Translations under genes and position numbers: made by a program
Origin: Geobacter sp.
GTDB taxonomy: Bacteria > Desulfobacterota > Desulfuromonadia > Geobacterales > Pseudopelobacteraceae
Direction of reading: 5' to 3'
Length of the DNA stretch: 56,568 nucleotides
Assembly (NCBI GenBank): GCA_031396605.1
Contig: JANNLB010000155.1
Coordinates: forward strand, 1-56,568
The notes under the pieces: model-generated
What the model was told of the DNA's origin: nothing
The model's database searches: none
The model's input: the letters and a program-made list of their open reading frames with translations, nothing else
Part shown: in pieces, positions 1-19,489 of the stretch
Layout: every line of letters begins with the position of its first letter
Position numbering within the stretch: position 1 is the first letter of the stretch

Positions 1-522
1 GATCGGGTGATCTTTCTTGGCGATCCAATCGATAACAGTGTCGCAAACATCGTGGTCGGGCAGTTGTTGTTTCTTGAATCGGTAGATCCTGAAAAAGATA
101 TCCACCTCTATATCAACTCTCCCGGCGGCATCGTAACCGCCGGCATGGCGATTCTGGACACCATGCGCTTTATCAAGTGCCCCGTCTGCACTATCTGCAT
201 CGGCGAGGCCTCATCCATGGGGGCAGTACTGCTGGCAGTCGGAGAAAAGGGGAAGCGCTTCTCGCTTCCCAATGCCCGAATCATGATTCACCAGCCTCTG
301 GGCGGCTTCCACGGCCAGGCAACCGATATCCAGATCCGGGCGAGGGAGATGCTGCTGGTCAAGGATAAACTGAACAGGATACTGGCCGATGCAACCGGTC
401 AGCCGTTCAAACGTCTTGAGGCCGACACTGAGCGCGATAATTTCATGTCAGCAGAAGAGGCCAAGGAGTACGGCCTGATCGACAAAATCATCGCCAATCG
501 TGCCGATGTGCAAATAGGATGA
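1..522 (+). CDS. clpP: ATP-dependent Clp protease proteolytic subunit ClpP (N-terminus lies left of the window)
   Basis: Frame 1 is open from base 1; the ORF track starts at an internal GTG at 7. The ClpP Ser/His/Asp contexts are visible: [28 protein letters not shown]. The next gene is a PP2C, not clpX. Confidence 0.9.
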
Positions 523-594
523 ACAGACTTCATTGTCAGGAAACCGAGAGGATGTCGTTATTAACAGGTACATCATAGAGTTAAAGGGGACTGC

Positions 595-1332
595 ATGAAC
601 AATACGGAGCGCAAAGGCTGTGCTGCAGTATCCTGGCTCAAGAATGCCAAGAACATCCGGAAGCCATACGAAGACCGCTACCGACTGTTGAGCAAAGATA
701 TACCGTTGGTTGGCAAGTCGGGACGTGGCGAACTGTTTGCCGTGCTGGATGGTATCGGCGGGGCACCTCGGGGCATGCAGGCAGCTCAGGCGGTTGCCGA
801 TTGCCTTTTGGATTTCTACCGCAAACCGGAAGAAATTCCGGCTGACAACAATGGGTTGAATCAGCTTCTGCTTCAAGCAAACCAGGCAATTAATGACTGG
901 GGTTGTGTGGATGGTACGGACAGTCCACTGGGAGGGGCCGCTGGAACAATCGTCTGGATTCAAGAGCAAAGGCTGACGCTATTCCATGCCGGAGATACTG
1001 CCGGGATACTCATTCGCCAGAATCAGGCGCCACAAGTTCTTACCAGCGCACATGAATTAGATGGCGGAATTTCCCGCTACTTCGGTCTGGGACGAAGACT
1101 AGAAATCGAGGTGAAGTCGGAGCGACTGGAAGAGGGCGATTTGATCCTGCTCGTGTCGGACGGTGTCACAAAAGCATTCAGTACTACAGAGGCAGCTAAT
1201 CTCGTGCTGGAGATTTACAACAAGACCGGAGATATTGGCTTTGCAGCACAGGAATTGGTGACCCGGTCGCGCAGCAAGAAGTCGGTTGATGATATTACCG
1301 TGATGCTGATTGAGGTAGAAGAAGATGAGTGA
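595..1332 (+). CDS. PP2C-family Ser/Thr phosphatase-like protein
   Basis: 245 aa with PP2C/SpoIIE-type motifs FAVLDGIGGAPRG, LILLVSDGVTKAF and DDITVMLIEV. Its stop overlaps the next start (ATGAGTGA), suggesting translational coupling. Confidence 0.8.
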   Translation: MNNTERKGCAAVSWLKNAKNIRKPYEDRYRLLSKDIPLVGKSGRGELFAVLDGIGGAPRGMQAAQAVADCLLDFYRKPEEIPADNNGLNQLLLQANQAINDWGCVDGTDSPLGGAAGTIVWIQEQRLTLFHAGDTAGILIRQNQAPQVLTSAHELDGGISRYFGLGRRLEIEVKSERLEEGDLILLVSDGVTKAFSTTEAANLVLEIYNKTGDIGFAAQELVTRSRSKKSVDDITVMLIEVEEDE

Positions 1333-2797
1333 ATGGTTGCAGCAAGAGGTATGTCGTAGAATCGAACTCTATTGCATTGATATGGGCTATGCTGAAGCAC
1401 CTGGCGAGAATTCATTTATCCCAAAAGATGCTGTAACTACATTCGGAATTGCCAGTCACATAGCAAATGTTGTGGGCTGTACTCACTATGTTGTCGTAGC
1501 ACCGCGCGGTCATATCTACGGATACTTTTTCAAGCAGTTCGGTTGCAAGGTTATGGAAGTGTATGTTTCGCCCCATTCGGGTGACGTTCAGGTTATAGAT
1601 GACCTATCCAGCATAAGAAAGCGAAGGGTATTCATCATAGAAGATAATGTGGTGAGTGAAGCGGCACTCCCGTCGGTTGTAAATTCACTGTTGCCGTATG
1701 AACCGGCTGAGATATGCCTGTTTGTTGGTGACACAAACGGTGAAAGACACCTGGATAACGTTCCACCGGCAATTTCACAGGTGTTCCTTACTGATCAGAT
1801 TTACAATTTTATCAGTCCGGAACAGCTCGAAAAAGATTTTACCGCTTTTTTTGCATATCTTGTTCCTGCTGCTATTGCGAACACAAACGCAGAAGCCACG
1901 ATGCAACCGAAATGGGCCCAAACTTCATACAATATTGGGAAAACGCTGAAGCCCTTTTTCAAAAGACTTAAACAAGTATGGGAGAGTCGTGCGGAGATAG
2001 ATCATAAACGCTTTCGGAATAAGCCGGGTACTATTCGTGTTGGTCAGAACAACATTGCTGACAATACCAGCTTCCTTTATTTCATGATGAATCTCTTTAA
2101 GCCTGGTTGCATGAGCCATATCTCAGTACGGCCCGGTTTGGCCTTGCCTTTGTCACTAATGCTTCTCCTTAAATATTCCAGGGGTATTCAACAGGCTGAA
2201 AACAGAAAGAAAGCTCTATTTATATCGTTAACGCACCCGATAGAAATTGCTGAAAACGTGATGGCTCACTGCCTGCGAAGAAGCGTCAAGCCGATGTTAA
2301 ATGGCAAAATCCTCGATAGAGACTGGCCATATTTGACCCGTGCGGCTGGTGAAGTGTATGACCTCTGCATAGATTTTTGGAAAGAAGATGTTTTTTTCGA
2401 GACGGATTTTCTGAAGCATATTCTTCAGTCCTCAGAATGGCCTTACGGGCTTGTCGTGATTAATGATTCGACTGGCCGGTTGGAGGAGGACAGCTACGGC
2501 ACAATTAATCCGTTGCAGCAATTGAAAAGCATCCGATTGCTAGCAACAGCACTGAATATTCCTGTCATTGTTATAAATTCAAGCCTCCAAAAGGACGTTA
2601 TGGACACAGATGTTTTTGATCACATTGCACAACTTAGCGATGACGTGGACAGATACCAGTTGTTCATATCTAAATCAAATAAAAGTGCATACGGTAAATT
2701 GACCTTTGTTATGTCCCGGAAATGCAACATTCTTGAGGATGCCTTGTCTAACTTTACTCAGACAAAGCCGGCTAATTACAATTCATGGAGCGAATAG
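1325..2797 (+). CDS. Fusion protein: N-terminal phosphoribosyltransferase (PRTase)-like domain plus C-terminal RecA/DnaB-C/KaiC-like domain lacking a Walker A lysine
   Basis: 490 aa. PRTase-like segments are VVVAPRGHIYGYFFKQFG and the PRPP-loop-like RRVFIIEDNVVSEAAL. The C-terminal half has DnaB-C/RecA-like strands (ALFISLTHPIEIAENV, GLVVINDSTGRLEE, LNIPVIVINSSLQKD). The position expected for a P-loop reads VRPGLALPLSL. Domain calls come from motif recognition only. Confidence 0.5.
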   Translation: MSEWLQQEVCRRIELYCIDMGYAEAPGENSFIPKDAVTTFGIASHIANVVGCTHYVVVAPRGHIYGYFFKQFGCKVMEVYVSPHSGDVQVIDDLSSIRKRRVFIIEDNVVSEAALPSVVNSLLPYEPAEICLFVGDTNGERHLDNVPPAISQVFLTDQIYNFISPEQLEKDFTAFFAYLVPAAIANTNAEATMQPKWAQTSYNIGKTLKPFFKRLKQVWESRAEIDHKRFRNKPGTIRVGQNNIADNTSFLYFMMNLFKPGCMSHISVRPGLALPLSLMLLLKYSRGIQQAENRKKALFISLTHPIEIAENVMAHCLRRSVKPMLNGKILDRDWPYLTRAAGEVYDLCIDFWKEDVFFETDFLKHILQSSEWPYGLVVINDSTGRLEEDSYGTINPLQQLKSIRLLATALNIPVIVINSSLQKDVMDTDVFDHIAQLSDDVDRYQLFISKSNKSAYGKLTFVMSRKCNILEDALSNFTQTKPANYNSWSE

Positions 2798-3058
2798 ATG
2801 AAGATTTTCTGGATAGGACTTGGAATTATGGGTGTGATTCACATCAGTAGGGGTGTGTGCTCACTACGGTAACGTTCCAAAGGTTGTAACAATTGTTATC
2901 AATTGCGCCATTCCGGTCATAATAGCACTGGCGATAGCATTAGTTAATCACATGAGAAGGCAACTTGAGCTAATGACTGAAGATGATGGGGAATGATGTA
3001 GGCACCAGTGGAATAAATGACCTGCAAGGATGTTTCTGATGATTTTATGGAGTAATTG

Positions 3059-3547
3059 ATGTTTAAAGACGATTTTGAGATTGATTTTGTTGATGGGGAC
3101 CTGCTGGATTTTGTAGGTGATGCTATTGTGGTCAATACAAATATACGGCTGAATTTGAATTACACATTGGGAAAAGCCATTTTGGGAAAAGCTGGACAAC
3201 CCCTTGAAATTGAACTTCAAGATATTCTTCATGATCGCTTTTCTGAAAAGGATTTACCATTAGGGACGGCGATGAGCACGAATGCATACGGCATGTCGGA
3301 TCATGTCCGAAAATTAATTTTTGTGAGTTGGTGGAACCAGGACAACGAATATACGGTCAACCATATATTCAAGGTGCATGCTGCCGCTATTCGAGAGGCT
3401 GATGCATTGGGATTGCGCACTATTGCATTTCCCTTGATGGGAAGAGGTCATCGAGTGAAATACTCGATTATAGCGGAAGGTATTGCCAAGACGATCAATG
3501 AGCTGAACAAGCTTGAAAGCGGTTTTCGGTTGAGAAAGTTGCTTTAA
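3059..3547 (+). CDS. Macro domain protein (ADP-ribose binding/processing); the 3' end probably continues to 3615 after a -1 shift
   Basis: Macro motifs are GDAIVVNTN, GKAILGKAG and TIAFPLMGRG. A GGAG lies 6 nt upstream of the ATG at 3059. The annotated frame stops at 3547. The -1 frame from the T-run at 3523-3526 encodes FSVEKVALITLHKEDVENVRRLVEAKLILG, which looks like a typical Macro terminal strand plus helix. Confidence 0.8.
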   Translation: MFKDDFEIDFVDGDLLDFVGDAIVVNTNIRLNLNYTLGKAILGKAGQPLEIELQDILHDRFSEKDLPLGTAMSTNAYGMSDHVRKLIFVSWWNQDNEYTVNHIFKVHAAAIREADALGLRTIAFPLMGRGHRVKYSIIAEGIAKTINELNKLESGFRLRKLL

Positions 3548-3609
3548 TTACACTTCATAAAGAAGACGTAGAAAATGTAAGGCGATTGGTCGAGGCTAAA
3601 TTAATACTG

Positions 3610-3649
3610 GGGTGAAATGTCAGAAATCGCCGCTTCTGTCGTTATGAAT
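3610..3649 (+). repeat. Conserved 40-nt motif, copy 1 (GGGTGAAATGTCAGAAATC...TGTCGTTATGAAT)
   Basis: 36 of 40 nt are identical to 10520-10559. In both copies it begins at the stop codon of a Macro-type reading frame. Confidence 0.7.
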
Positions 3650-3671
3650 AGATGAATCCAATTCCCTCGGT

Positions 3672-4115
3672 ATGGAGGCACAAAATACGATGAATGTTAT
3701 TCAACACCACCTCAACAACATCTCTGAAAATAGCTCTTCTTCCCCATCACCACTGACAAATGAAGGCATGTTTGTGGTAGCCATAGTACTTGAGATTCTG
3801 ATGGCTCATAATCGTTATGTTGACCAGCCATACACACGGGAAGACATTAACGATACGATTGAATCCTTACCAAGGTTTCAAATAAAATGGCTCCTCAGCA
3901 TTATTAAGTCACTCAAGACGAAAAAGCATTCACGGGTAAGGCAAAACCTTCTCGCAATTACTCTGCAGAAAACCCCGGAACCGGTTCTTACAATTGATTT
4001 GTCGAACTACCTCCGCATCAACTATTTCAATACGTTCATAAAATTGTTTGTCGGGCTCACTGATTGTAAGTTGCAGGAAGTTGGCAAATATCGATATTTG
4101 GTGACATCGTGGTGA
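3672..4115 (+). CDS. Hypothetical protein (ORFan)
   Basis: 147-aa ORF in operon orientation. An alternative start is ATG 3690, which has a GGAGG upstream. I recognise no motif. Confidence 0.5.
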   Translation: MEAQNTMNVIQHHLNNISENSSSSPSPLTNEGMFVVAIVLEILMAHNRYVDQPYTREDINDTIESLPRFQIKWLLSIIKSLKTKKHSRVRQNLLAITLQKTPEPVLTIDLSNYLRINYFNTFIKLFVGLTDCKLQEVGKYRYLVTSW

Positions 4116-4178
4116 CGTCGTGTAATTTTCGCAAACGAATGGCTGAAGTCTAACCGTAGTGAAATTTGTGAGGTGTGT

Positions 4179-4829
4179 ATGGGATGCTCATTTTATTATA
4201 AAGGTTGCCTTAAGGATCATAAAGCGCAGGAAGAGGTCATCGAGTTGGCAGCTCAACTTGCTGGAGATCATGGATTCATGGTTCTCCCGGATAGTAACAA
4301 AAAATATCTGGCGAGGATCGGATTAGACTCGAACCTTCTGGAAGATGGCAGTTATACCCAGAGTTCAGGAATCACGGACCCGTCATGTGGGTTTGATTTC
4401 TATGGAATAAGTTTCTATGGAAATCCGCTTCAGAATGATCATAGTTCTGTGCCGGATCAATTAATATTTCATCGTTGTCAGCTAGGCTCTCTCGCTTATA
4501 TGGAAAATAGAGAGGGAATGATAGTTTCATTAGCCTTGAAACAACTTCAGCAATACTCGCCCCCAGAATATGACGATACTATGGTTTATGACGGCCCTCT
4601 CTTGCATGTCGCTAGCGGCGGTGAATTTAGATGTGGAGGAGGAGCAAAGTTTGCATTGCTTCTTAATTTGATAAAATTACGCTGGATGCCTGATCTTGAT
4701 ATGTTTGATGATTATGGCAATTGCGACAGCATGGAAAGAATTATCCATCACCATCGGCTGGCTGGCAAATTTTCAAAAAAATCGATGTCATTTGAGGAGT
4801 GCTGGGAAATGGTTGAAGGTTTATTGTAA
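4179..4829 (+). CDS. Hypothetical protein (ORFan, Cys-rich N-terminus)
   Basis: The ORF track gives 4173-4829. ATG 4179 has a GAGG 6 nt upstream. I recognise no family. Confidence 0.55.
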   Translation: MGCSFYYKGCLKDHKAQEEVIELAAQLAGDHGFMVLPDSNKKYLARIGLDSNLLEDGSYTQSSGITDPSCGFDFYGISFYGNPLQNDHSSVPDQLIFHRCQLGSLAYMENREGMIVSLALKQLQQYSPPEYDDTMVYDGPLLHVASGGEFRCGGGAKFALLLNLIKLRWMPDLDMFDDYGNCDSMERIIHHHRLAGKFSKKSMSFEECWEMVEGLL

Positions 4830-4901: not shown

Positions 4902-6071
4902 ATGCTTGTGAAGATAAGCGTGATGATATTCCTCCTCTTTTCTATGTACAGACATTCCCATGCATATGAAATCCGGAGTCCAATCGAAAAGGCCGAGGCT
5001 GGATCGGCTACGGTTGAGATGCTTGCGGATGCGATAAACGGTAATTTCGACAACAAGAATTTCAACTTTGACATAAACACAGGGGTTGATCTGACTTATT
5101 GGAATCCTGGTTTCGATGAAGATAAAGTTGTAAAATTCACCACCGAAGGGATGAAAACATATCACGTTGGTGCAAATTTTACCTACAACGACAAATCCAT
5201 GCTGGCCTTGCAATATGAAAGGCCTTTTGACGGGACAAAAAACCAGTTAGAGATCTTCAAGGCCAATATGAAACAGAATTCCGGCATTGAACGGTTCACC
5301 GGAGAGGTAAAACTCGACCCTCTCGCCGATCTCCTGTTTCCGGACAGTCTGCTGCTGAGAAAAATACTTTCCGTTGAATACAGATACTCAAGGGAACGCT
5401 TCTTTGGTGAGGTTACCGCTCAAAGAGAAATTGCGTACATTCCGAAAGATGCGATCGTTGACCACGTCAAGAGAACGATAACAGGAAGCAAATCCGTTTC
5501 TGCCGGGGAAAAACTGGATTTCAGGACTGAATTTATAAACCAGGAAATATCCATCCCTTTGGTGAGCCTGGATATGAAGAAAACCGTAAACTATAACGGG
5601 AGGGTGGAGAAGATAAGTTTCTTCCGGGAGGACTTCAGGGTGGGTTACTTCAATTTCCAGTGGAGCAGACCCTCCCATGGTACTGACGACACCCTCGCCG
5701 GCAAGCCGATCATCAGTGACACTACCTTCAAGTCACAAGGATATTATCTTTCCTTTGAGACTCAGGACCCCGGTTCTCCGGGATTTAACCTTGATTGGCT
5801 GGTACGAATTGGGCTAGGCGGCGAGGTGGACAATGCCTTTCACTATAATAAATCTGATGTGTCTTTTGTCGGCATGAGTATAAATACTTGGTACAATCAC
5901 TACTTCAACAGCAGGAATGGAGGTCCTGCAGCAACCTTCGGATTCCTCTTCGATTGGAGGCGCATGAATGTGGATGAGAAAACAACTGAAGCATCAACCA
6001 GCACTGTTCGGATTATGAATGAGCAGGAGAAACTCTATAAGGTCTACCTGAACCTCATCTATCGATTTTGA
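4902..6071 (+). CDS. Putative outer-membrane beta-barrel protein
   Basis: It has an N-terminal signal peptide (MLVKISVMIFLLFSMYRHSHA), an alternating aromatic/hydrophilic pattern, and a C-terminal LNLIYRF ending in Phe, which is the OMP signature. An AGGAG RBS is present. Confidence 0.6.
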   Translation: MLVKISVMIFLLFSMYRHSHAYEIRSPIEKAEAGSATVEMLADAINGNFDNKNFNFDINTGVDLTYWNPGFDEDKVVKFTTEGMKTYHVGANFTYNDKSMLALQYERPFDGTKNQLEIFKANMKQNSGIERFTGEVKLDPLADLLFPDSLLLRKILSVEYRYSRERFFGEVTAQREIAYIPKDAIVDHVKRTITGSKSVSAGEKLDFRTEFINQEISIPLVSLDMKKTVNYNGRVEKISFFREDFRVGYFNFQWSRPSHGTDDTLAGKPIISDTTFKSQGYYLSFETQDPGSPGFNLDWLVRIGLGGEVDNAFHYNKSDVSFVGMSINTWYNHYFNSRNGGPAATFGFLFDWRRMNVDEKTTEASTSTVRIMNEQEKLYKVYLNLIYRF

Positions 6072-6204: not shown

Positions 6205-7128
6205 ATGTCACACAATAGTCAGATTGTCAGGGAGATTGAAGAGTTCAAGGTTTTTGTAAAAACGGCCGGATCAGTCCCGGAAGCCGAGTTCGACATTGAA
6301 TTTCATAGTAGGCTCTGGAATATCGAAAAACTTGCCCGCCGGGAACCAGAAAATCGCAAGTCGTTGATGGCTGACTTCCTGGCATCAACGACATCAGAAT
6401 TCGAGGTCGGGCTCATGAGCTGCCACAGCAGAACCAAGCCTTTGGGGTATGCCGGCGACCATATCCTTATCGACATGATTTACCAGAAGACTGTTGCCAA
6501 TACAGAGGCGGGCAGGAGGATGGATGAATTCTTCCATCGCCAGAAAGCCCCCGCTGCAGTTCGCAACCGCAAGAGCTTTTTCATCGAAACATTCGTTGAA
6601 CTGTGCCAGAAAAAAGCTTCTCCATCGATTTTTGATATCGCCTGCGGTCCTTGCAGGGATGTGGCTGAGGCTCTTGAGGAAGCTGGCGATACGGCGGAAG
6701 GCGCCTCATTCCATTGCGTCGATATGGACCCGCGTGCGATTGCGTATGCCCAGTCGGTTGTAGATCCTTGCAGAGCTACCCAAATCTGCTGGCAGGTAAC
6801 TGATGTGTTCCGTCTTCGCACCAGGAAAAAACATGATCTTGCCTGGTCAGCCGGACTGTTCGATTATCTCAATGACCGGTTGGCTGCTGCTCTGCTCCGC
6901 AAGATGTGGGATGCGACAGTAGAAGGCGGAGAAGTCATCGTCGGCAATTTTCACACATCCAATCCAGACCGTGCCTGGATGGAGTGGTGCGGCGATTGGC
7001 ACCTTATTCACCGGGATGAGGAGGACATGCTCTATCTTTGTCACCGGGCTGGAGTACCGACGGATTCGATCCGATTCCATTACGAATTGACTGGCATAAA
7101 CATGTTTCTGAGGATATCGAAGGATTAA
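6205..7128 (+). CDS. Class I SAM-dependent methyltransferase with an extra N-terminal domain
   Basis: Motif I is IFDIACGPCRDV, followed by the acidic loop HCVDMD and post-I/II strands. An AGGAGG RBS is present. Confidence 0.8.
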   Translation: MSHNSQIVREIEEFKVFVKTAGSVPEAEFDIEFHSRLWNIEKLARREPENRKSLMADFLASTTSEFEVGLMSCHSRTKPLGYAGDHILIDMIYQKTVANTEAGRRMDEFFHRQKAPAAVRNRKSFFIETFVELCQKKASPSIFDIACGPCRDVAEALEEAGDTAEGASFHCVDMDPRAIAYAQSVVDPCRATQICWQVTDVFRLRTRKKHDLAWSAGLFDYLNDRLAAALLRKMWDATVEGGEVIVGNFHTSNPDRAWMEWCGDWHLIHRDEEDMLYLCHRAGVPTDSIRFHYELTGINMFLRISKD

Positions 7129-7157: not shown

Positions 7158-7580
7158 ATGCTGAGAATTCTACTGATTGAAGATGATAACGGACGTGTCA
7201 GGATAATAAGGGAATGGTTGCCTGAGGATGTGCGTTTGGTGCACGCTGGCAGCGCCGGTCGCGCCATTGGCATTCTACAGCGAGACCGTGATGCCTACGC
7301 CGGAATTATGCTCGATCATGACCTGCAAGGTCAGGTCGCAACCGATATGGACTTCTTTCTTTCCGGCAGCAATGTGGTGAAGACAATCATTGCAAATGTC
7401 CCTTCTGACACGCCTGTTCTGGTTCACTCAATGAATCCTGAAGAAGCACCGAAGATGGTTATGACACTGACAAAATCAGGATTTAGCGTTACCCGCCACC
7501 CCATGAGTGTGTTGACAAAAGAATGTCTTGATGAGTGGCTGCAGGAAGTCCGTGAATGCTGGGACAGCCGTGACGAATGA
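7158..7580 (+). CDS. Stand-alone divergent receiver (CheY-like) domain protein, copy 1
   Basis: The start is ATG 7158, after AGGAGA. REC landmarks are LLIEDD, MLDHDL (acceptor Asp position) and VLVHS. It is a paralogue of 11172-11591. From memory it resembles the family described as the cyclic-phosphate processing receiver (cREC); this needs an HMM check. Confidence 0.7.
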   Translation: MLRILLIEDDNGRVRIIREWLPEDVRLVHAGSAGRAIGILQRDRDAYAGIMLDHDLQGQVATDMDFFLSGSNVVKTIIANVPSDTPVLVHSMNPEEAPKMVMTLTKSGFSVTRHPMSVLTKECLDEWLQEVRECWDSRDE

Positions 7581-7787
7581 GGTGTTCAGAGTGACGCCCT
7601 GGCAAATTCGGATTTTGTGTTTTCGTGCATTGCTCATTATGACAACCTTAATCTTATTGAGCGGCCACGTAACTGAAGTTGCTGGGCATCGGACAAAAAC
7701 GTAGGTTTATTCAAGTCGCAAATGTGCTCATCGAAGGATTGTGCCGTTGTAATCGCAAATAGTAATGGTCACGAGGAGTGGTTAATT

Positions 7788-8573
7788 ATGGATGAGCATT
7801 CCGATACAAGCCGATTAAACAAACAACGGCTTGTTATGACCCTATGCGGATTCTTTGTTTCATCGACCACAGTAATTGATTGGTACTTGAATGCGCCTCT
7901 CCGTATTTTGCCACTCAGTGAGGAAGAATATTTACGTTACCCGTATCTGTATTTAATTGTAAAACCCATACAAGTTATTGCTACGCCCGATCTAATTGCT
8001 TACTGGTGGATGGTCGTGCTGGTTGCGGGGTGGATGTTTATCCTTGGATTCATATCAGCAAAGATAGTTATTACCATTTATCAATCCAGATTTATCGCGA
8101 CCCAGAATGTCTATCTGAAAACCATTGCCATGGCAGGTCTGATAATTGGTCTTAGTGCCGGATATTTTCTGCTAATTGCTGCATACATGCTCCCATTAGT
8201 CTGGAAAATCTATATGTCCATTGTAACCGCCATGCTCACGTTTATTGGTACCTATTTGGTGTTTCGCTCTCCCTATCATTTGTATCTTTGGTGGAAAACA
8301 GAAAAGGTTTTACACCTGCTGTCTGCGCCGGCAAAGGTATTTACGGAACTCGGATACGGGAATTCGACTTTCCTCAGTACTGAAATCGAGCTGCCAGACG
8401 GGCGGGAGTATCGCCAAGCCTGTTTCGTCAGCATGAGGGTTGAAGGAGTGTATCTCCGTGTCTGGATGGGAACTCGTGTCTTTATTCTTTCAAGTCGAGA
8501 TGGGCTAAAAATACAGAGAAAAGACCGAAAAGCATTCAAAATATTGGTTGGCATTCATGGCCACGCGCAATAA
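7788..8573 (+). CDS. Multi-pass membrane protein with a soluble C-terminal domain
   Basis: The ORF track gives 7722-8573. ATG 7788 has a GAGGAG upstream. There are 4-6 hydrophobic helices (e.g. WWMVVLVAGWMFILGFISAKIVITI, LIIGLSAGYFLLIAAYMLPLVW). Confidence 0.6.
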   Translation: MDEHSDTSRLNKQRLVMTLCGFFVSSTTVIDWYLNAPLRILPLSEEEYLRYPYLYLIVKPIQVIATPDLIAYWWMVVLVAGWMFILGFISAKIVITIYQSRFIATQNVYLKTIAMAGLIIGLSAGYFLLIAAYMLPLVWKIYMSIVTAMLTFIGTYLVFRSPYHLYLWWKTEKVLHLLSAPAKVFTELGYGNSTFLSTEIELPDGREYRQACFVSMRVEGVYLRVWMGTRVFILSSRDGLKIQRKDRKAFKILVGIHGHAQ

Positions 8574-10299
8574 TGGCCGGGGTTTGTTTATGCGCACGGA
8601 TCTTAAACACATATTACGACCAGAGAATGGGCCTTCGCTCCGGACAAAGCTCTGGTGGCTCAGCTGGAATAATTACCAGTCACCACTTCCGACAAAGGGT
8701 TTCCTGGCTGGCGGTGCGGTTGCAAGCTTGGTACTTTCTGAAGCCTGGGGTGGAAATTTTCCGATCAACGATCTGGATGTATTTTTAACCGATTCAGAAA
8801 AAACAGATCCTCCCGCAACACCAGTACGCATAACCGGGATCGCTCTTGATAACCAGGTAGAAGACGATGAATACCAGGGGAGGTACAATGTTCGCAACAG
8901 GGGCTATCAGGTAGTCAACTCGGACCGCATTGATTTGATTAATACGGTGTCTGTTCGGATGCTGGAAGATGAACTGCCCGTTCTCGCCGCATACAGGTTC
9001 ATTCTCCAGGGTTTTGATCTCAACTGTTGCCAGATCGGTATTGACCTGGAGAGCGATCAACTGATATGGACACCGGAATTTGAAGAATTTGTCGCAACCG
9101 GCCAGTTGAAGGTTACCCATCTTGCAACCCCTTACCACACAGCTATCAGGCTGGCTAAGAAACAAGGCGAGCTTAATTGTTACTGCGACTTGAAAACAGA
9201 GCTCTCTCTTCTGACTACATATGTCGATATGGTGTCGGCTCTCGGTCGCAGCAACAGAAATAATGTAATGTATTCCCGATTTTTCGGGAAAAAGTATCAC
9301 GAAACGTATCTCTGTCATCAAAATTCACTTGAACCCTATTGCATTGTTTTTCCTGGAACCAATCAACTCCTGCTGCCAGGCACTGGGATTCCGACGCCTG
9401 ATTACTACAGCATGGAATTAAATGTTCCATCTGCTTATCAGGAATTGAGGCCGTATTTCTATATATACGGTGGCCTGCAACTCAGCAGTGTCAGTATGCT
9501 CCAAATGTTTGACAAAATCTGCCGCCCAACCACCCGATCCGTTACTCGGCGCAAATTTGTAACTGCTATTAAGTTAGGAGGACTGGCTGCAATCTGCGCT
9601 ATTCAAAACAGTGGCTTTCTGGATTGCAATCATCATCACAAGAACTTTAAAAAGCTTGAACAATTTGCTAGAGAGCATTTTGGCGTTATCTGCCTGTTTA
9701 ATCGACTTGGCTTGAATTTTTCAGAGCAGTTGCAGGCGATTCGCACCATCGGATGTTCTGTCAAAAAGCACGGATTGTTCGTCATCGGGCTGCTGGAAGA
9801 CAGTAATAACGTGATACTGCGGGAAGCAACCGAGTTATCTGAGGAGTTGATAGAGCACGTTGTCAGTGATTTCAGAAGAAGTGTCTCAGCCACACAACTG
9901 GTGTCGCCTGTAAATTTGTCCGGTTTCCCCCGAAAACACCTGGCAATTGTTATTGAGCTTGTCAATGCCCAGCAGTTAGAAGAGGAAGGCATAAAACAAC
10001 ACCATTGTGTAGGGGGGTACATAGATGCGATCCAATCCGGAAAATGCCGGATATTTCACCTGGAGTACCTTGGAGAATCGACAACTTTACAGATATTACG
10101 GAGCGGCAAATGTGGAGAGCACCGGGCACGCTTTAACAGATTACCGCCTCCGGAGCATGTCACTTTAGCTGCCGAGCTGTCTGACTATATCCATATGCTG
10201 AATTCAGACGTGGAAGCTGATTATGGGCAGGCTTTGCTGGATTCCATGCCCTATCATGGGGGTGATATTAATGACATTGTAAATCAGATTGAAGCCTGA
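8548..10299 (+). CDS. Large protein with an N-terminal nucleotidyltransferase-fold-like region and a C-terminal PcfJ-like domain
   Basis: The N-terminus has FLAGGAVASLV...INDLDVFL (a GG...DxD pattern) and FDLNCCQIG. The C-terminus has LEEEGIKQHHCVGGYIDAIQSGKCRIFHL, which is typical of PcfJ-like proteins. The start is uncertain: 8548 TTG, 8557 ATG or 8590 ATG. Confidence 0.5.
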   Translation: MAFMATRNNGRGLFMRTDLKHILRPENGPSLRTKLWWLSWNNYQSPLPTKGFLAGGAVASLVLSEAWGGNFPINDLDVFLTDSEKTDPPATPVRITGIALDNQVEDDEYQGRYNVRNRGYQVVNSDRIDLINTVSVRMLEDELPVLAAYRFILQGFDLNCCQIGIDLESDQLIWTPEFEEFVATGQLKVTHLATPYHTAIRLAKKQGELNCYCDLKTELSLLTTYVDMVSALGRSNRNNVMYSRFFGKKYHETYLCHQNSLEPYCIVFPGTNQLLLPGTGIPTPDYYSMELNVPSAYQELRPYFYIYGGLQLSSVSMLQMFDKICRPTTRSVTRRKFVTAIKLGGLAAICAIQNSGFLDCNHHHKNFKKLEQFAREHFGVICLFNRLGLNFSEQLQAIRTIGCSVKKHGLFVIGLLEDSNNVILREATELSEELIEHVVSDFRRSVSATQLVSPVNLSGFPRKHLAIVIELVNAQQLEEEGIKQHHCVGGYIDAIQSGKCRIFHLEYLGESTTLQILRSGKCGEHRARFNRLPPPEHVTLAAELSDYIHMLNSDVEADYGQALLDSMPYHGGDINDIVNQIEA

Positions 10300-10665: not shown

Positions 10666-11091
10666 ATGAAGTTAAGAGTACCAATGCTTGAATCAGTTTG
10701 TTATGTAGCCGAGAATGTTCCAAAGCGATGCAGAGACCTCTTTCATATCGAACTGGATTTTTCGGTAGAAAGCATTGAACACCTTGAAGGGATCATTGAA
10801 TCTTTTCCTCGTGGTGATGAACCAACAATACTGGAAAAATTGAACGAACCACTGGTAGCCATAGGGTGTTATGTCGGTGAAGTAATTCGCAGGAATTTCG
10901 GCGGTGAGTGGCAAGACACTTCAAGTGTTAATGGTTTTCCAATTGGCATCAAGCTGGGAAGTACATATCTGAACCCTATCGACAAGGTTATAAGGCGCTA
11001 CAAAGAAGGGAGTGAACACAATTTGACCGATTATGTGAAGTTCTCTTTATTGATGAAGGTAACTTTCGATAAAAATAGTATGACATTGTAG
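10666..11091 (+). CDS. Hypothetical protein
   Basis: 141-aa ORF with a GGGGGTG RBS. The pattern FSVESIEHLEGII...AIGCYVGEVIRRNFGGEW is reminiscent of small immunity/DUF-type proteins, but I cannot assign a family. Confidence 0.5.
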   Translation: MKLRVPMLESVCYVAENVPKRCRDLFHIELDFSVESIEHLEGIIESFPRGDEPTILEKLNEPLVAIGCYVGEVIRRNFGGEWQDTSSVNGFPIGIKLGSTYLNPIDKVIRRYKEGSEHNLTDYVKFSLLMKVTFDKNSMTL

Positions 11092-11171: not shown

Positions 11172-11591
11172 ATGATTCGAATTCTGCTTATCGAAGACGA
11201 CAATGGACGTGTCAGAACAATCAGGGAATGGTTGCCTGAAGATGTTCGTCTGGTACACGCCGGCAGCGCCGGTCGCGCAATCGGTATTCTCCAGAGAGAC
11301 CGTAATGCCTATGCCGGGATCATGTTGGATCATGACCTGCAAGGTCAGGTCGCAACCGATATGGACTTCTTTCTTTCCGGCAGCAATGTGATGAGGACAA
11401 TTATTGCAAATGTCCCTTCCGACACACCTGTTCTGGTTCACTCCATGATTCCCGCAGATGCTCCGAAAATGATTATGGCACTGACAAAATCCGGTTTCAG
11501 CGTTACACGCCTCCCAATGTGTGTTTTGACGAATGAGAACTTTAGCCAGTGGCTGGAAGAGGTGAGAGAAGTCTGGGCGGATCGGGAATGA
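11172..11591 (+). CDS. Stand-alone divergent receiver (CheY-like) domain protein, copy 2
   Basis: 139 aa and highly similar to 7158-7580, including a 63-nt block of perfect nucleotide identity (11328-11390 equals 7313-7375). Confidence 0.7.
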   Translation: MIRILLIEDDNGRVRTIREWLPEDVRLVHAGSAGRAIGILQRDRNAYAGIMLDHDLQGQVATDMDFFLSGSNVMRTIIANVPSDTPVLVHSMIPADAPKMIMALTKSGFSVTRLPMCVLTNENFSQWLEEVREVWADRE

Positions 11592-11609: not shown

Positions 11610-12551
11610 ATGAAAATAATCAGTGCTTCGCGACGAACAGATATCCCACAGTTCTACTCAGCCTGGTTCAAGGAGCGTCGCAAATCTGGCTTCGCTGAAT
11701 ACCGTACAGTTTATGGCGGTGGTAAAGACGGCAAGTTTAGGGTTTCCTTGAAAAATGAGGACGTTATCGGGTACCTGTTTTGGACAAAATTTGCCGGGCC
11801 GTTTCATGAGCAGTTGGAGGCCTTGCGGTCAGAAGGAATGCCGTATGTATTCCAGTATACCCTTACAGGATATGGCAAAGAGATCCAGCCTGGAATACCG
11901 GAACGTTCAGCAGCTATTGATGACTTCCTGCGGGTTTCTGTAGATCTACCCGCAGCAACAGCAATCCAGTGGCGATACGATCCGATTCTGGTGTCGCCGC
12001 GCTACAACATTGACTGGCACCGAAACAATTTTGAACAGATCGCGGAACAACTACAAGGATCTACTCGTGTGGTGAACGTTAGCTTTGTCGAACCGTATCT
12101 GAAAGCGATAACAAAGGCACCGGATTGGCGCGATATTCGGTGGCGAAAGCCAGATCCGATTCGCCACAAAACAGCCCTCAGCAAATATCCTGAAATCCGT
12201 GCCATCGGTGCTGAGGAGGATGTATTACTGTCTGACCTGGCTGAAATTGCCAGACAGCGAGGTATAGAACTGCGGGTCTGCTGTAATCGTGAACATGATG
12301 GACGGTTTCCGACAGCAGCGTGTTGCGGTTTGGAGCTTTTCCAAGCATACGGCACTGAATTGAATAAACGTGTTGCCGATCTTGCACCTGGCCCCTCACG
12401 TCCAGGTTGTCGGTGCCTGAAGACTGTTGATATCGGTATGGATACTACGTGCCCCGGAGGATGTTTCTATTGCTATGTCACAACCTCACTGGAACGCGCC
12501 CGATTGAATTATGAGAAACATGATCCGGCAGCCTCAATGATGAGATCGTGA
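11610..12551 (+). CDS. DUF1848 family protein (C-terminal Cys cluster, probable Fe-S)
   Basis: The N-terminus is IISASRRTDIPQFYSAWF and the C-terminus is CRCLKTVDIGMDTTCPGGCFYCY, as I remember for DUF1848. It starts 18 nt after the receiver gene. Confidence 0.7.
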   Translation: MKIISASRRTDIPQFYSAWFKERRKSGFAEYRTVYGGGKDGKFRVSLKNEDVIGYLFWTKFAGPFHEQLEALRSEGMPYVFQYTLTGYGKEIQPGIPERSAAIDDFLRVSVDLPAATAIQWRYDPILVSPRYNIDWHRNNFEQIAEQLQGSTRVVNVSFVEPYLKAITKAPDWRDIRWRKPDPIRHKTALSKYPEIRAIGAEEDVLLSDLAEIARQRGIELRVCCNREHDGRFPTAACCGLELFQAYGTELNKRVADLAPGPSRPGCRCLKTVDIGMDTTCPGGCFYCYVTTSLERARLNYEKHDPAASMMRS

Positions 12552-12621: not shown

Positions 12622-13065
12622 TTACGCTGTTGGCTCGACAACAGCCGTTTTTGATGCAGCAGGAGCCTTGACAGCGATCCCCTTTTTCACTTTTCCCTTT
12701 TCCTCTGCCTCGCCAAGCGGATTCGTGAACCCGCGCGGCGGTCTGTAATCCCACCCCATCTCCTTGCACATTTCAGCGTTCAGGAGATTGATTTCCTCTT
12801 TGATTTTCTGACTACGCTCGATGAATTCCTGAGCCTTTTCGAACTTGATGTTCTTATTCCGCCCCATGTTCATCCGCAACTGGTAGAGGACATTATCGAG
12901 GGTGTTGAGCATACCGATGAAGTCGCTCTGGTCCATGGTCTTCCGGGATATGACGTCTATGTCGTCCCGATTCACCTTTTCCAGCTTCCGTTCCTGCCAC
13001 GTCTTACCTCCTGAAGGTTTATTGCCTCCCTGTCCATCATTGGCTTGCTTACTCTTGTCAGTCAT
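12622..13065 (-). CDS. Hypothetical protein at the distal end of the transfer operon
   Basis: ATG 13065 is preceded by AGGAAAGGAG. The protein is charged and probably coiled-coil. No family recognised. Confidence 0.5.
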   Translation of the reverse strand: MTDKSKQANDGQGGNKPSGGKTWQERKLEKVNRDDIDVISRKTMDQSDFIGMLNTLDNVLYQLRMNMGRNKNIKFEKAQEFIERSQKIKEEINLLNAEMCKEMGWDYRPPRGFTNPLGEAEEKGKVKKGIAVKAPAASKTAVVEPTA

Positions 13066-13082
13066 GTTCACTCCTTTCCTGG

Positions 13083-14570
13083 TTAACTTCTTCCGGTAGC
13101 CCTGCGGGCCACTCCTGTTCCGAATCTGCCGGACAGTTCCGAGAAGACGGTATCGTCGAATCTCTTCATGGTGATGACCAGCATCTCTATCGCGTTCATT
13201 TCATTTACGACGTTGGCATATCCCTGTTGCGCCGTGGTCAGCAGGACCCGCGTCCTGTTTGTAAGCTGCTCGACGTTCTTCATACCGTCGAACAGCAGGG
13301 CGAGCTGGCAGCTGTTGGGGTTGGCACCCGCCTTGTTGTCCTTGTTCTGCGACTGGATCTGGGCTGAGAGGTTTTGCAGTTGCGCCGCCTCCTGCAGGAG
13401 ATCGAGAAGCATGTAGTAGGCGAATGCCCTGGCGGTTACCGCGGAAAGCTTGCCGATTACCTCTCCCTCTGTATTGGTGGCGATGGCGGTTTTCAGCACG
13501 AGACTGATGGAGAGCGGCGTTGCGTTAAGAAATGGCACGTCGTTGGTTGCGTCGAGGGTCTGCTTCGCTTTCATCTTTGTCGATATGGCCTGCATGCGGG
13601 TTGAGACGTATTGCATGATATTCGCGTTGGCGTCCGTGATGGCGCTGCATACTCCGGCTGAATTCTTTCCCTGCGCCGAACCGTCCAGGAATGTGTCGAA
13701 ATCGGTATTCTTGTCGCACGGTGGTATGAAGCTGGCGACATAGGTGCTGTTCGTCGTGGTGGGTGATTGCACAACCACGTCGCCGATGAACCCCCGGATG
13801 AGCTTGACATAGTTGGCGTTCATTCCCTTCTTGGCGGCCAGGTTGTCGAGTACCGAGCCTCCGCCGAAAATATCGGTGATGTCGCTGGGACAGCCGGCCG
13901 TGCTCCCCTGGGAGGCCTGGGCCACGATGTTGCCGACCGGCGGCGTGTTCCCCATGGCGGAATTCATCACCGAAGTCAGGTTCGTTTTTGAGGTCTGATA
14001 CATGTCATTTATGCCGCTGGATACCATGAAGTCATTCATCGAATTGCTCATTTCATTCTTCACGCTGTTGCTCATGATCGGCGAGAACGGTTCGCTTGCC
14101 ACTGCCACGAGAGCCTTGGCCGCCTTGCAGTCGTTAAGTTGTATGTTGTTCAGGCGGTCCACGATAGCCTCCAGGGATTTGATTGTATCCGCCACCTGGG
14201 GGGCCAGCGTCTTCATCGCGATGTCGAAGGCCGCCGCCGGCGCCGCCGAAAGGATGCGCTGCAGCTTCTGGACAAGGTAATCAACATTCATGAAGCTGAA
14301 CCCTCCCAAGAAAGCGTCGATCCCGCCGCAGCCGGACTTGATCGACGGCAGGGTCACGGTAACGGGATAGTCGGTGCCATTGGGCCAGCGGGCGGAAAAG
14401 CTGCCGCCGGTGTAGTAACCCCGCTTCGCCCCCTCGTAGTAGCTTGGTGATGTTGCGGTCTTCTGGGTCATCCAGTCATCGACCCAGCCGCTCCAGGAAA
14501 GAGCGGGCATCGTGGCGATCGCCAGGGCAAGCGCCGACGCAATGGTTTTCTTTGCTGTTTTTCTTTTCAT
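13083..14570 (-). CDS. traH: F-type conjugal transfer protein TraH
   Basis: It has a signal peptide after the ATG at 14570 (GGAAAGGAGGTG RBS). The block TLPSIKSGCGGIDAFLGGFSFMN...CKAAKALV matches the conserved TraH core. Confidence 0.85.
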   Translation of the reverse strand: MKRKTAKKTIASALALAIATMPALSWSGWVDDWMTQKTATSPSYYEGAKRGYYTGGSFSARWPNGTDYPVTVTLPSIKSGCGGIDAFLGGFSFMNVDYLVQKLQRILSAAPAAAFDIAMKTLAPQVADTIKSLEAIVDRLNNIQLNDCKAAKALVAVASEPFSPIMSNSVKNEMSNSMNDFMVSSGINDMYQTSKTNLTSVMNSAMGNTPPVGNIVAQASQGSTAGCPSDITDIFGGGSVLDNLAAKKGMNANYVKLIRGFIGDVVVQSPTTTNSTYVASFIPPCDKNTDFDTFLDGSAQGKNSAGVCSAITDANANIMQYVSTRMQAISTKMKAKQTLDATNDVPFLNATPLSISLVLKTAIATNTEGEVIGKLSAVTARAFAYYMLLDLLQEAAQLQNLSAQIQSQNKDNKAGANPNSCQLALLFDGMKNVEQLTNRTRVLLTTAQQGYANVVNEMNAIEMLVITMKRFDDTVFSELSGRFGTGVARRATGRS

Positions 14571-14605
14571 GGTAGTTTCACCTCCTTTCCGCTGGTGATG
14601 GAACT

Positions 14606-15445
14606 TCACTGCTGGTCGAGGTTCGACGGCCTCTTCCTGACATCGAAGCCGCCTCCCTTCTGGAAGTCGTACAGGCTGAAATCCTCCGGGGTGATCTCGC
14701 CTTTCAGGAGGCGCACCGCCCGGTATGTCTTGTCCTCGATCTCCTCGGCAGTTATCAGTCCGCTTGAGACAGGGAAGGAGTTCTGGTTACCCTTCTGGAT
14801 CAGGATCATGGCCGGCGTTATTTCGATACCGAACCTTCCGGCAAGGCCTGAATTCTCCTCGATGTTGATCCTCTTCACTTGCCAGCCGGTGGCATTGGTG
14901 AACCAGTCGATGATTGGCTGCTGCTGCTGGCAGTAGCCGCAGTCATTCTTGTAGAAATAGATCAGGGCGAACTCCTCCCTGTTGTCACGAAGCTTCCTGG
15001 TTTTTTCCTCCTGTATCTGGCCGACCCGGCTGAGATTGCCGGGGGTGGCAATCGGATAATCCTTGGCGGTGGTCAGCTCGGGGTATTTCTGCCAGACGTA
15101 CTGGGCGACGTTGGTGAACGCCAGGGCCTTTTTCCGGGCTATCTCCTGGACCTCGTAGTACTCCTTGACGTTCTCCTCGGACGGGTTCTGTACCGCCTTC
15201 CTCTTCAAGCCTTCGGCGAACTTCTCGAAGTCATCCGGGTGCATGTTCCAGATCTCGTCATAGGAGTAGTCCGAAAGCGCCGGCGCCTTCTTCGACTTTG
15301 TCTTTTTCCGCTCCGCCCCCTTTTCCTCCTTCTTGTCAGGCTCCTTCTGATACCACCACCATCCCTTACCCGAATCGGTGTAGTAACCGGCGCCAGCCGT
15401 AGCGGCAAAGGAGAGGAGAAGCAGGGCTGCGATTATATGACGCAC
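14606..15445 (-). CDS. traF: F-type conjugal transfer protein TraF (thioredoxin-fold)
   Basis: A GTG start at 15445 follows GGAGGAGG and gives the signal peptide MRHIIAALLLLSFAATAGA. GKGWWWYQKEP and a thioredoxin-like C-terminal half with CGYC match TraF. Confidence 0.8.
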   Translation of the reverse strand: MRHIIAALLLLSFAATAGAGYYTDSGKGWWWYQKEPDKKEEKGAERKKTKSKKAPALSDYSYDEIWNMHPDDFEKFAEGLKRKAVQNPSEENVKEYYEVQEIARKKALAFTNVAQYVWQKYPELTTAKDYPIATPGNLSRVGQIQEEKTRKLRDNREEFALIYFYKNDCGYCQQQQPIIDWFTNATGWQVKRINIEENSGLAGRFGIEITPAMILIQKGNQNSFPVSSGLITAEEIEDKTYRAVRLLKGEITPEDFSLYDFQKGGGFDVRKRPSNLDQQ

Positions 15446-18975: not shown

Positions 18976-19489
18976 GACCGAACACCGCTTCCCATGGCGA
19001 TTCCTCCAAAGACACGCTGGCTGCTGCCACCTGTTTCTGTTCCTGACGGGTCTGCTGGAACGCTACTTGCTCCCGGCTCATCAGCCGGGCGATCCTGGCG
19101 GCGTACCTGTCCCGCTTCGACGGAGTGCGCGAGTTGTAGCAGCCGACTGCTGACCAAGTGTAGCCGTAGTCACGGATGCATTGGGCCAGCACCCAGGCCC
19201 CCACCTTGACGTTTGTGCACGGATCGGCAAGTGCTTCCCAAGAGATCCCCATCCTCCGAAGAGACGGCGCCCAGGAGGAATTGATCTGCATGAGCCCGAA
19301 GTCGTAACTCCCGTTGGTGTTGTTGTTGACGGCGGCAGGGTTGAAGTTGCTCTCTCCCTTGGAGATGGTCCAGAGAAGCCGGGGCGCGATGCCGTACATG
19401 GCGCCGGCCTCCTCGTAACAGAAGGCATGCGCTGTCCCGTAGGAACAGAGTGTCGACAGAATTATCAATCTCAGGATCACCCGACGCAT
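18962..19489 (-). CDS. Lytic transglycosylase (Slt domain; VirB1/Orf169-like)
   Basis: It has a signal peptide, a catalytic Glu context ISKGESNFNPAAV, and YDFGLMQINSSW. Confidence 0.85.
   Translation of the reverse strand: MRRVILRLIILSTLCSYGTAHAFCYEEAGAMYGIAPRLLWTISKGESNFNPAAVNNNTNGSYDFGLMQINSSWAPSLRRMGISWEALADPCTNVKVGAWVLAQCIRDYGYTWSAVGCYNSRTPSKRDRYAARIARLMSREQVAFQQTRQEQKQVAAASVSLEESPWEAVFGHDPR

Follow-up and report, generated by a model that had tools for sequence, protein, structure and literature searches.

Comparison with described systems

The by-product pathway of Tpt1/KptA leads from the cyclic phosphate of ADP-ribose (ADPr>p) through ADP-ribose (ADPr)-1''-phosphate and ADPr to AMP and ribose-5-phosphate; its enzymes are a cyclic phosphodiesterase, a Macro ADPr-1''-phosphatase (Macro domains also serve as de-ADP-ribosylases), and a NUDIX ADPr pyrophosphatase. 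Pairs of a helicase and a phosphoribosyltransferase (PRTase) are represented by ComFC/ComFA, a PRTase fused to a superfamily 2 (SF2) helicase, PsyrTA, RqlHI, and ShosTA. The cyclic-phosphate-processing receiver-like (cREC) domain has been predicted to open ADPr>p and often occurs with NUDIX in phage counter-defence or RNA-repair neighbourhoods, where the predicted role of the phage cREC-Nudix neighbourhoods is ADPr>p processing directed against RNase- or NAD-based immunity of the host (PMC9503650). One PRTase clade, characteristic of phages and conjugative elements, has been tied to DNA entry (PMC5512222). Here we analyzed a 56,568-nucleotide stretch of Geobacter sp. DNA (contig JANNLB010000155.1 of assembly GCA_031396605.1; hereafter the window), which begins with genes for a ClpP protease, a PP2C-family phosphatase, a 490-amino-acid (aa) PRTase-like::DnaB-like fusion protein, and a Macro domain protein. 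The stretch 1-3615 forms the promoter-proximal end of a single-strand accessory array of 12.5 kb, which lies in a conjugative or mobilisable element integrated into the chromosome. This array is rare, modular, and recurrent, and it combines mobile-element-borne processing enzymes with a fast-evolving pseudo-enzyme unit.

The array is similar to the clean-up of ADPr>p (Appr>p) by cREC, Nudix, and Macro proteins in several respects. The window contains two cREC genes and a Macro gene, to which the related loci L001, L008, and L017/L018 add NUDIX, and both the mobile-element host and the eraser or processing character of the enzymes are shared. On the other hand, the array adds PP2C, DSPc, CYTH, ClpP, an ATPase, and a pseudo-PRTase::pseudo-DnaB protein, and it lies on an integrated island rather than in a phage. 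Pfam detected no ADPr>p generator or RNA repair enzyme (KptA/Tpt1, sirtuin, RNA ligase, or kinase-phosphatase) in any locus.

As in ComFC/ComFA-type helicase-PRTase pairs and the PRTases of invasive elements, a PRTase fold is tied to a helicase fold on a mobile element, and the stand-alone PRTases of the sister loci retain the catalytic DD motif. However, the partner in the array is a DnaB-type RecA fold of superfamily 4 (SF4) without NTPase motifs instead of an SF2 helicase, and the fused PRTase has lost its phosphoribosyl pyrophosphate (PRPP) loop. Neither DprA nor a zinc ribbon is present with the array PRTase. Membership in PsyrTA, ShosTA, or the retron PRTases was considered and rejected, with no PADLOC match to the PsyrA, ShosT, or retron PRTase models at E-values (E) up to 1. 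Strings of small same-strand genes, a methyltransferase, many genes of no recognisable family, and a conjugative element are features that the array shares with the anti-defence islands in the leading regions of plasmids, but their hallmark genes ssb, psiB, ardA, and acr were not seen in the array, and the paper describing those islands mentions no Macro, Nudix, phosphatase, or protease genes (PMC11541004). A Macro domain on a mobile island near conflict genes also recalls DarTG, but no DarT-like ADP-ribosyltransferase (ART) neighbours the Macro gene, which is neither fused nor adjacent to a toxin.

In the sister loci, a TraD/HerA-like ATPase stands ahead of clpP, and its P-loop core matches mad8 of MADS best among the PADLOC models (E 2.7e-15), with weaker matches to HerA, DndH, and PbeA. 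Unlike the MADS, Dnd, and Pbe systems, the loci match in this P-loop core alone and contain no other genes of those systems, and the ATPase lies outside the window, just upstream of its edge. The sequence-only reading of this DNA had recognized no named defence system in the combination, which agrees with PADLOC-DB v2, where no match was obtained for ClpP, the 490-aa protein, Macro, PRTase, CYTH, or the proteins of no recognisable family, and PP2C matched only PDC-M21C, weakly (E about 1e-6). PHROGs gave no match apart from weak PP2C matches, and literature searches returned no description of ClpP with CYTH and Nudix on conjugative elements, or of a PRTase with a DnaB-like protein and PP2C.

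Conservation of the array in related loci

About nine closely related metagenomic loci contain shuffled versions of the array, typically in the order TraD/HerA-like ATPase, ClpP, CYTH, PP2C, DnaB-like protein with or without a PRTase domain, a two-transmembrane (2TM) peptide, and NUDIX, with cREC further on. L001 begins with a small helix-turn-helix (HTH)-like open reading frame (ORF), the ATPase (937 aa), ClpP, CYTH, 2TM, NUDIX, a 488-aa fusion, and a 67-aa gene, and continues with a 294-aa DnaB-like paralogue, a 98-aa gene, Macro, genes of 101, 217, and 389 aa, a methyltransferase, and cREC. L007 runs from the ATPase through ClpP, CYTH, PP2C, a stand-alone PRTase with an overlapping start, 2TM, a 215-aa gene, NUDIX, and a 506-aa fusion to, further downstream, DSPc, and L009 shows ATPase, ClpP, CYTH, PP2C, an overlapping DnaB-like gene, 2TM, and NUDIX. 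L008 consists of PP2C, DnaB-like, 2TM, a 219-aa gene, a TM protein, NUDIX, a 339-aa gene, PRTase, genes of 140 and 220 aa, PLD, a 139-aa gene, and cREC. L004, L015, and contig ERZ1426828 hold further shuffled versions. The only close locus with a taxon is L006, which lies in the Geobacteraceae metagenome-assembled genome (MAG) contig CAJAFV010000033 (4900-17250) and is riddled with insertion sequence (IS) elements.

Between the window and L001, the syntenic ClpP, 490-aa, Macro, 218-aa, 389-aa, methyltransferase, and cREC proteins are 75-89% identical in amino acid sequence, and other identities between loci are 69-76% for the ATPase and 62-91% for NUDIX. Since these loci are near relatives, their synteny alone is weak evidence of function. 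A more divergent lineage, L017/L018, carries in one orientation a small HTH-like ORF, the ATPase (47% identity), a multi-TM protein, PP2C (56%), and NUDIX (57%), and, after intervening genes, Macro (61%), cREC (70%), DSPc, a PRTase with an overlapping start, and DUF1848 (69%). The stand-alone PRTase of this lineage is 38% identical to the N-domain of the fusion. No ClpP, CYTH, DnaB-like, or 2TM gene is found in the sequenced stretch of L017/L018, and the multi-TM protein occupies the place of ClpP. In L016, a 24%-identical DnaB-like protein is accompanied by a DUF3977-like membrane protein, a serpin, an ATP-grasp ligase, Macro, cREC, and PP2C. As judged from these comparisons, the conserved neighbourhood is ATPase, PP2C, NUDIX, Macro, cREC, PRTase, and DUF1848, and ClpP, CYTH, and the DnaB-like/2TM pair are additions specific to the lineage of the window.

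The sequence-only reading had raised the question whether ClpP, PP2C, and Macro genes are conserved neighbours of the 490-aa protein across unrelated taxa. The linkage of PP2C, PRTase, and Macro is conserved in L017/L018 at about 50-60% identity, but ClpP is absent there. The neighbourhood does recur, but not in demonstrably unrelated taxa, as the close loci are near relatives and only one of them has a taxon. A scan of genome contigs returned one locus, that of the Geobacteraceae MAG, and a scan of metagenomes returned L002 again. The viral scan (IMG/VR) gave no match, and nothing in the plasmid collection matched the 490-aa protein or the array at the DNA or protein level. The more distant PRTase relatives lie in unrelated chromosomal contexts.

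Some further features of individual loci were observed. Only 83 aa of ClpP and 60 aa of the ATPase persist in L006, whose DUF1848 gene is interrupted by a transposase-like ORF of 555 aa; L013 and L014 are fragments that come from this lineage and are nearly identical. In L016, positions 1784-4110 hold a 410-aa serpin and a D-Ala-D-Ala-ligase-like ATP-grasp gene between the DnaB-like gene and Macro/cREC/PP2C, so that one variant of the array has a protease inhibitor and others have the protease ClpP. An ATP-grasp gene is also present in L006, where it is split (13315-14216). The C-terminal tail of the L004 ATPase (111-380) looks by eye like the helix-hairpin-helix of the RNA polymerase alpha C-terminal domain (...GGIRKLLREGGCNTIQDVLARTKCELIQKVGLNNNMMNKLERELEKIG...).

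Proposed role as erasers without writers

The recognisable enzymes of the array appear to be of the eraser or processing type. In the window they are PP2C, Macro, two cREC copies, and a methyltransferase, and CYTH, NUDIX, DSPc, PLD, and a PRTase that looks active are found in addition in the sister loci. Pfam searches of the called genes of the sister loci (genes cut by contig ends excluded) and of the window ORFs detected no kinase, ART, TIR, sirtuin, or RNase toxin. Because every recognisable enzyme is an eraser and no writer could be detected at any of the loci, the simplest assumption is that the writers belong to the opponent. Under this reading, cREC would open ADPr>p to ADPr-1''-phosphate, Macro would convert it to ADPr, and NUDIX would yield AMP and ribose-5-phosphate. 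Together with the phosphatases, these enzymes would erase ADP-ribose, cyclic-phosphate, or phospho marks or signals of host immune enzymes. The dead PRTase::DnaB-like protein would work by binding, as a scaffold or decoy, and ClpP would be an accessory effector using host Clp ATPases. We tentatively favour the interpretation that the array is a counter-defence or clean-up module of the mobile element, without regarding it as probable in itself.

Several points weigh against this interpretation. First, about half of the array genes have no recognisable domain and could hide writers. Second, the coupling of a small two-TM peptide to a fast-diverging, paralog-expanding pseudo-enzyme is also typical of abortive-infection systems, which combine a sensor with a membrane effector. 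Third, the best PADLOC matches of the lead ATPase are defence ATPases, and its plasmid homologues are mostly found on non-mobilisable plasmids, one of them beside CHAT proteins. Finally, the array might be independent of conjugation, as its flanks vary from locus to locus, and part of the synteny among the close loci, as near relatives, is simply inherited. As to defence versus counter-defence, the gene content, consisting of erasers without writers, leans towards counter-defence.

The PP2C, DnaB-like, and two-TM peptide unit

The most distinctive unit of the array consists of PP2C, a pseudo-DnaB ring-type protein that is here fused to a pseudo-PRTase, and the two-TM peptide, all translationally coupled. 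The PP2C-family Ser/Thr phosphatase gene (595-1332, + strand) matches PF00481, PF13672, and PF07228 (E 6e-11 to 1e-8; PF00481 43 bits against a cut-off of 20.3), and its translation contains all metal-binding motifs (ED, DGxGG, GDT, SDG, and DDIT). Its stop overlaps the start of the 490-aa gene in GAAGATGAGTGAATGG, with the ATG at 1325 and the TGA at 1330-1332, so the overlap that the sequence-only reading had noted (ATGAGTGA) is real. An overlap of 8-11 nt between PP2C and the following DnaB-like or PRTase gene is present in the window, L006, L007, L008, L009, and L015, so that PP2C is translationally coupled to one or the other gene in six or more independent loci. The identity of PP2C between loci is 73-83%.

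The 490-aa protein (1325-2797, + strand) has no match in Pfam, NCBIfam, PADLOC, or PHROG, and only eight relatives were found among 5.8 billion clustered proteins. An exhaustive profile search against 1.84 billion representatives gave 113 matches, which split into two domains. For residues 1 to about 185 (1325-1900, + strand), the relatives are either stand-alone proteins of similar length (about 185 aa) or the C-terminal domains of larger proteins, and these in turn match PF00156. The profile of this N-domain finds HGPRT-type PRTases in the PDB (E 2e-6), indicating a PRTase fold of type I (HGPRT-like). Its PRPP loop, normally an acidic pair followed by xxSGxT, has degenerated and reads IIEDNVVSEAAL in the window, and VDNVESEITL and ADASIDAESL in other fusions. 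Stand-alone relatives have IIEDDxxSGxTL at this place, the stand-alone PRTases of sister loci retain EDDxxSGxT, and the degeneration is confined to fused copies.

The remainder of the protein (1901-2797, + strand) is a linker helix and a RecA fold of the DnaB C-terminal type. The matches of residues from about 195 to 490 comprise true DnaB, TIR-DnaB_C fusions, and stand-alone proteins with lengths of 267-308 aa, and the profile of this C-domain matches DnaB 2r6a (E 3.6e-7). An AlphaFold2 (AF2) model built on an alignment of 37 sequences (pLDDT 83.8) shows the DnaB-like linker helix ahead of the RecA core, and all top Foldseek matches of the model are DnaB helicases (PDB E 3.5e-11; BFVD E 5.5e-12). 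The initial proposal of a PRTase-like protein fused to a P-loop-less RecA/DnaB-like domain is therefore upheld in both parts by the profiles, the model, and Foldseek. The protein shares with the DnaB C-terminal domain the fold, the preceding linker helix, and the motifs RP..., DW, GLxVI, and LAxELxxPVI. However, it has neither the N-terminal primase-binding domain nor the NTPase motifs of DnaB and is not a helicase. The GKT of the Walker A motif is changed to ALP (RPGLALPL in the window, RPxxGKT in DnaB), and across the C-domain family the catalytic Glu is replaced by Thr or Ser (window SLTHP, DnaB SLEMS) and the Walker B Asp by Asn, His, or Tyr (window VVIND, DnaB VVIDY). The motif-H3 Gln is missing, and the Arg-finger segment is deleted. 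Both domains of the fusion thus look catalytically dead from their motifs, and for this reason the fusion is unlikely to make or transfer a nucleotide-derived signal.

The PRTase head seems to be dispensable. L009 is shorter than the window by about 530 nt exactly at the PRTase domain, and the stand-alone DnaB-like proteins retain the first six residues and the linker of the fusion. The match of the gap to the domain, together with the retained residues and linker, suggests repeated in-frame loss of this head. Tandem DnaB-like paralogues were also seen: the ERZ1426828 contig contains genes of 291 and 287 aa, each followed by an ORF of about 65 aa, and L001 (5455-8032) contains the 488-aa gene followed by a 67-aa ORF and the 294-aa paralogue followed by a 98-aa ORF. 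Among distant relatives of the C-domain (P0089, P0118), some are TIR-DnaB_C fusions with intact P-loops, which resemble a separate, defence-type use of the DnaB fold.

Wherever the 2TM gene follows the DnaB-like gene, it starts at the stop of the latter. In the window it is frameshifted (2798-2996, + strand) by a 2-bp deletion between 2849 and 2850, and it corresponds to a conserved peptide of 65-68 aa with two TM segments and an acidic tail. Intact copies are present in L008 (1027-1224), L009 (5120-5320), L007, L001, and L004, and the start is visible in L015. The sequence-only reading had placed the Macro gene after a 260-nt gap; the Macro gene stands where it was placed, but the gap is not empty, since 2798-3055 holds the frameshifted 2TM gene. 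The fastest-evolving parts of the array are the DnaB-like protein (identity across loci 35-83%, median 52) and the 2TM peptide (29-90%, median 35).

The main rival explanation is a new abortive-infection-type defence system, carried as island cargo. In such a system the DnaB-like ring would be a decoy or sensor bound by replication proteins of the invader, such as helicase loaders, and PP2C would restrain the ring. The two-TM peptide, perhaps with ClpP, would be the effector, and a nucleotide signal would be buffered or reset by cREC, Macro, and NUDIX. The overlapping or abutting PP2C, DnaB-like, and 2TM genes in at least six loci, the fast evolution of the DnaB-like protein and the 2TM peptide, and the tandem DnaB-like paralogues are in line with this proposal. 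So are the resemblance of the lead ATPase to mad8, HerA, DndH, and PbeA with one homologue beside CHAT proteins, the AbiE pair on the same island, and the TIR-DnaB_C fusions among distant relatives, and a frameshift in the 2TM gene fits a toxic effector in a decaying copy. However, the core proteins have no PADLOC match, no recognisable signal generator or classical toxin domain is present, L017/L018 retain the eraser set without a DnaB-like or 2TM gene in their sequenced stretch, and the loci do not lie within recognisable defence islands. We consider this explanation possible, if on the whole unlikely.

A more specific version, which we regard as decidedly doubtful, is that a ring of the DnaB-like protein, still bearing a vestigial PRTase head, mimics the replicative helicase as a decoy. 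It would capture the helicase loaders or hijackers of invaders and, with PP2C, gate the two-TM peptide. In a counter-defence version, the decoy would instead capture host factors that attack incoming DNA.

ClpP and the lead ATPase

The clpP gene (1-522, + strand) lacks 25 codons at its 5' end, which is cut by the window edge. The product is a canonical ClpP by PF00574 (E 1.8e-75, 253 bits, cut-off 20) and, despite the truncation, by NCBIfam NF001368 (283 bits, cut-off 249). Alignment with E. coli ClpP confirmed the intact triad that had been read from the sequence, namely Ser (ASSMG), His (MIHQP), and Asp (DTERD). The window ClpP is 87-92% identical to those of L001, L004, L007, and L009. A phage head-maturation ClpP-like protease was rejected, as NF045542 scored 79 bits against a cut-off of 120. 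No Clp ATPase partner (clpX/clpA, AAA+) is found in the window array or in any sister locus.

The sequence-only reading had named a sole housekeeping clpP, with tig upstream, as an outcome that would count against it. Instead, clpP lies directly 3' of the TraD/HerA-like ATPase in all five sister loci with upstream sequence (L001, L004, L007, L009, and, as a remnant, L006), and since the ATPase abuts clpP in all of them, this clpP is not the gene of a tig-clpP-clpX operon. The idea that foreign genes were inserted downstream of a host housekeeping clpP draws on the canonical nature of the protein and on the 62% identity of the full-length sister ClpP to E. coli ClpP. It is hardly tenable given the upstream ATPase in place of tig, the lack of a downstream clpX, the position of the gene inside an integrase-bounded island, and the frequency of clpP on mobile replicons (215 plasmid records).

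Another proposal was a single four-gene system, made up of ClpP, PP2C, the fusion, and Macro, that would couple a signal or modification derived from a nucleotide or ADP-ribose to proteolysis by ClpP. All four genes are indeed real, on the same strand, and closely spaced. In the window, L007, and L009, ClpP and PP2C are neighbours of the fusion or of its C-domain in stand-alone form, as they are in L006, where ClpP is truncated and IS elements separate it from PP2C. The serpin of L016 might be seen as a recurring protease theme. As a self-contained unit, however, the four genes do not hold together: they open a 12.5-kb array that starts upstream at the ATPase, and CYTH, 2TM, and NUDIX genes lie among them in intact copies. 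ClpP always adjoins the upstream ATPase and not the fusion, and ClpP and the fusion do not co-evolve, because the former is 87-92% conserved and the latter 40-66%. Macro is distal and present in some loci only, lying several genes away in L001 and being absent from the sequenced parts of L007, L008, and L009. The fusion domains have no catalytic motifs, and ClpP is absent from the divergent L017/L018 lineage, so that coupling to proteolysis is not a conserved feature and did not find support. We regard the four-gene model as very improbable.

Macro, downstream genes, and island setting

The Macro gene (3056-3547, + strand) matches PF01661 (E 5e-8, 33 bits, cut-off 22). A 1-bp deletion at 3519/3520 replaces about the last 25 residues; the intact frame would run to 3615 with its stop at 3613-3615, which is where the sequence-only reading had ended the gene string. 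The protein is 81% identical to the L001 Macro and 61% identical to the L017 Macro.

After Macro, the array continues on the same strand with two conserved proteins of 147 and 218 aa (3672-4115 and 4173-4829) that have no family match; their counterparts in L008 and L001 show 92% and 82% identity. The following 389-aa protein (4902-6071, + strand; 75% identical to the L001 gene) has no family match in the Pfam, NCBIfam, and PHROG scans. It is likely to be an outer-membrane beta-barrel, because its signal-peptide-like N-terminus and C-terminal ...LIYRF are typical of such proteins. Next comes a class I S-adenosylmethionine-dependent methyltransferase (6205-7128, + strand; 79% identical to the L001 gene), which belongs to no recognisable DNA methyltransferase family; the idea of a Hen1-like RNA methyltransferase was not supported by the PDB sequence search. 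PDB sequence searches were uninformative for the 218-aa, 339-aa, and 215-aa proteins, the methyltransferase, and DUF1848.

The first cREC copy (7158-7580, + strand; PF20274 E 1.7e-7) is 86% identical to the L001 cREC. It is followed on the + strand by a DUF3977-containing membrane protein (7722-8573) with a 52%-identical homologue in L016, a PcfJ-like protein (8548-10299), a 141-aa ORF (10666-11091), and the second cREC copy (11172-11591). The two cRECs of the window are 84% identical to each other, and each is about 80-86% identical to the single L001 cREC. Because the DUF3977/PcfJ-like/141-aa block separates these two similar copies, we suggest a cREC duplication with an insertion. DUF1848 (11610-12551, + strand; 69-79% identical to the L017 and L006 copies) forms the 3' end of the array, and a terminator-like hairpin (12626-12645) lies 3' of its end. 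A short DUF1848 remnant is present in L001 (11707-11866), upstream of the methyltransferase. The promoter scan of the window gave no predictions above shuffled background.

The array converges on genes for TraH, TraF, an HD-domain protein, a type IV coupling protein (T4CP), and SLT (12622-19489, - strand). The HD-domain protein has 488 aa and is possibly a fragment of a MOB_H-type relaxase; the T4CP is short (462 aa) and is preceded by a 240-aa ORF. Either the visible type IV secretion system (T4SS) set is incomplete or decayed, or its remainder lies past the left window edge. The AbiEi/AbiEii genes (19992-21699) adjoin the gene for a tyrosine integrase (21696-23054) that contains an Arm-DNA-binding domain. 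These genes agree with the initial description of an island carrying AbiE and decayed tra genes. From 23.5 kb on, chromosomal housekeeping genes follow (GlnD, an aminoacyl-tRNA synthetase, PurB, PurL, and MscS), and the boundary between island and chromosome is expected at about 23.1-23.5 kb. A tRNA gene was not detected at this boundary, and the tRNA and Rfam scans of the window were empty.

The GC content is strongly mosaic, with 54% in ClpP, 52% in PP2C, 41-43% in the 490-aa through 218-aa genes, about 50% in the methyltransferase, cREC, and DUF1848, and 57% in the tra genes. This suggests that the array was pieced together from parts of different history. Furthermore, the window copy is without CYTH and NUDIX. 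Because of these losses, the frameshifts in the 2TM and Macro genes, the cREC duplication with its insertion, and the partial T4SS, the window array is probably an eroded copy, unless the frameshifts are assembly errors.

Here, we need to consider that the array might have no joint function, with unrelated cargo co-occurring through the shared ancestry of a few related, decaying islands. The near relationship of the close loci, the small number of homologues (about 10 among 5.8 billion proteins), the two frameshifts and lost genes of the window copy, the IS elements that fill L006, and the mosaic GC content are all consistent with this. However, this set of domains is found again, in a single orientation, in loci where identity is down to about 50-60%, the stop/start overlaps persist through gene shuffling, and cREC, Macro, and NUDIX form a coherent chemical pathway. 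We therefore regard the absence of any joint function as unlikely.

Significance of the array

Part of the array is already known in kind, namely the cREC/Macro/NUDIX processing neighbourhoods and the PRTases of invasive elements. The new parts are the pseudo-PRTase::pseudo-DnaB fusion, its coupling to PP2C and the 2TM peptide, and the lead ATPase with ClpP. As the family is very rare and has been seen only in metagenomes and one Geobacteraceae MAG, its general importance is limited unless the mechanism is new. If the array is a functional unit, as the favoured counter-defence or clean-up interpretation supposes, the combination of ATPase, phosphatase, cREC, Macro, NUDIX, and PRTase would be new among the predicted eraser toolkits that mobile elements direct against host immunity. 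If the decoy proposal were true, it would represent a guard mechanism built from a dead helicase, of a kind so far undescribed for bacterial conflict systems. The pseudo-PRTase::pseudo-DnaB family, which is annotated nowhere, shows that the folds of replication proteins are recycled as non-catalytic parts.

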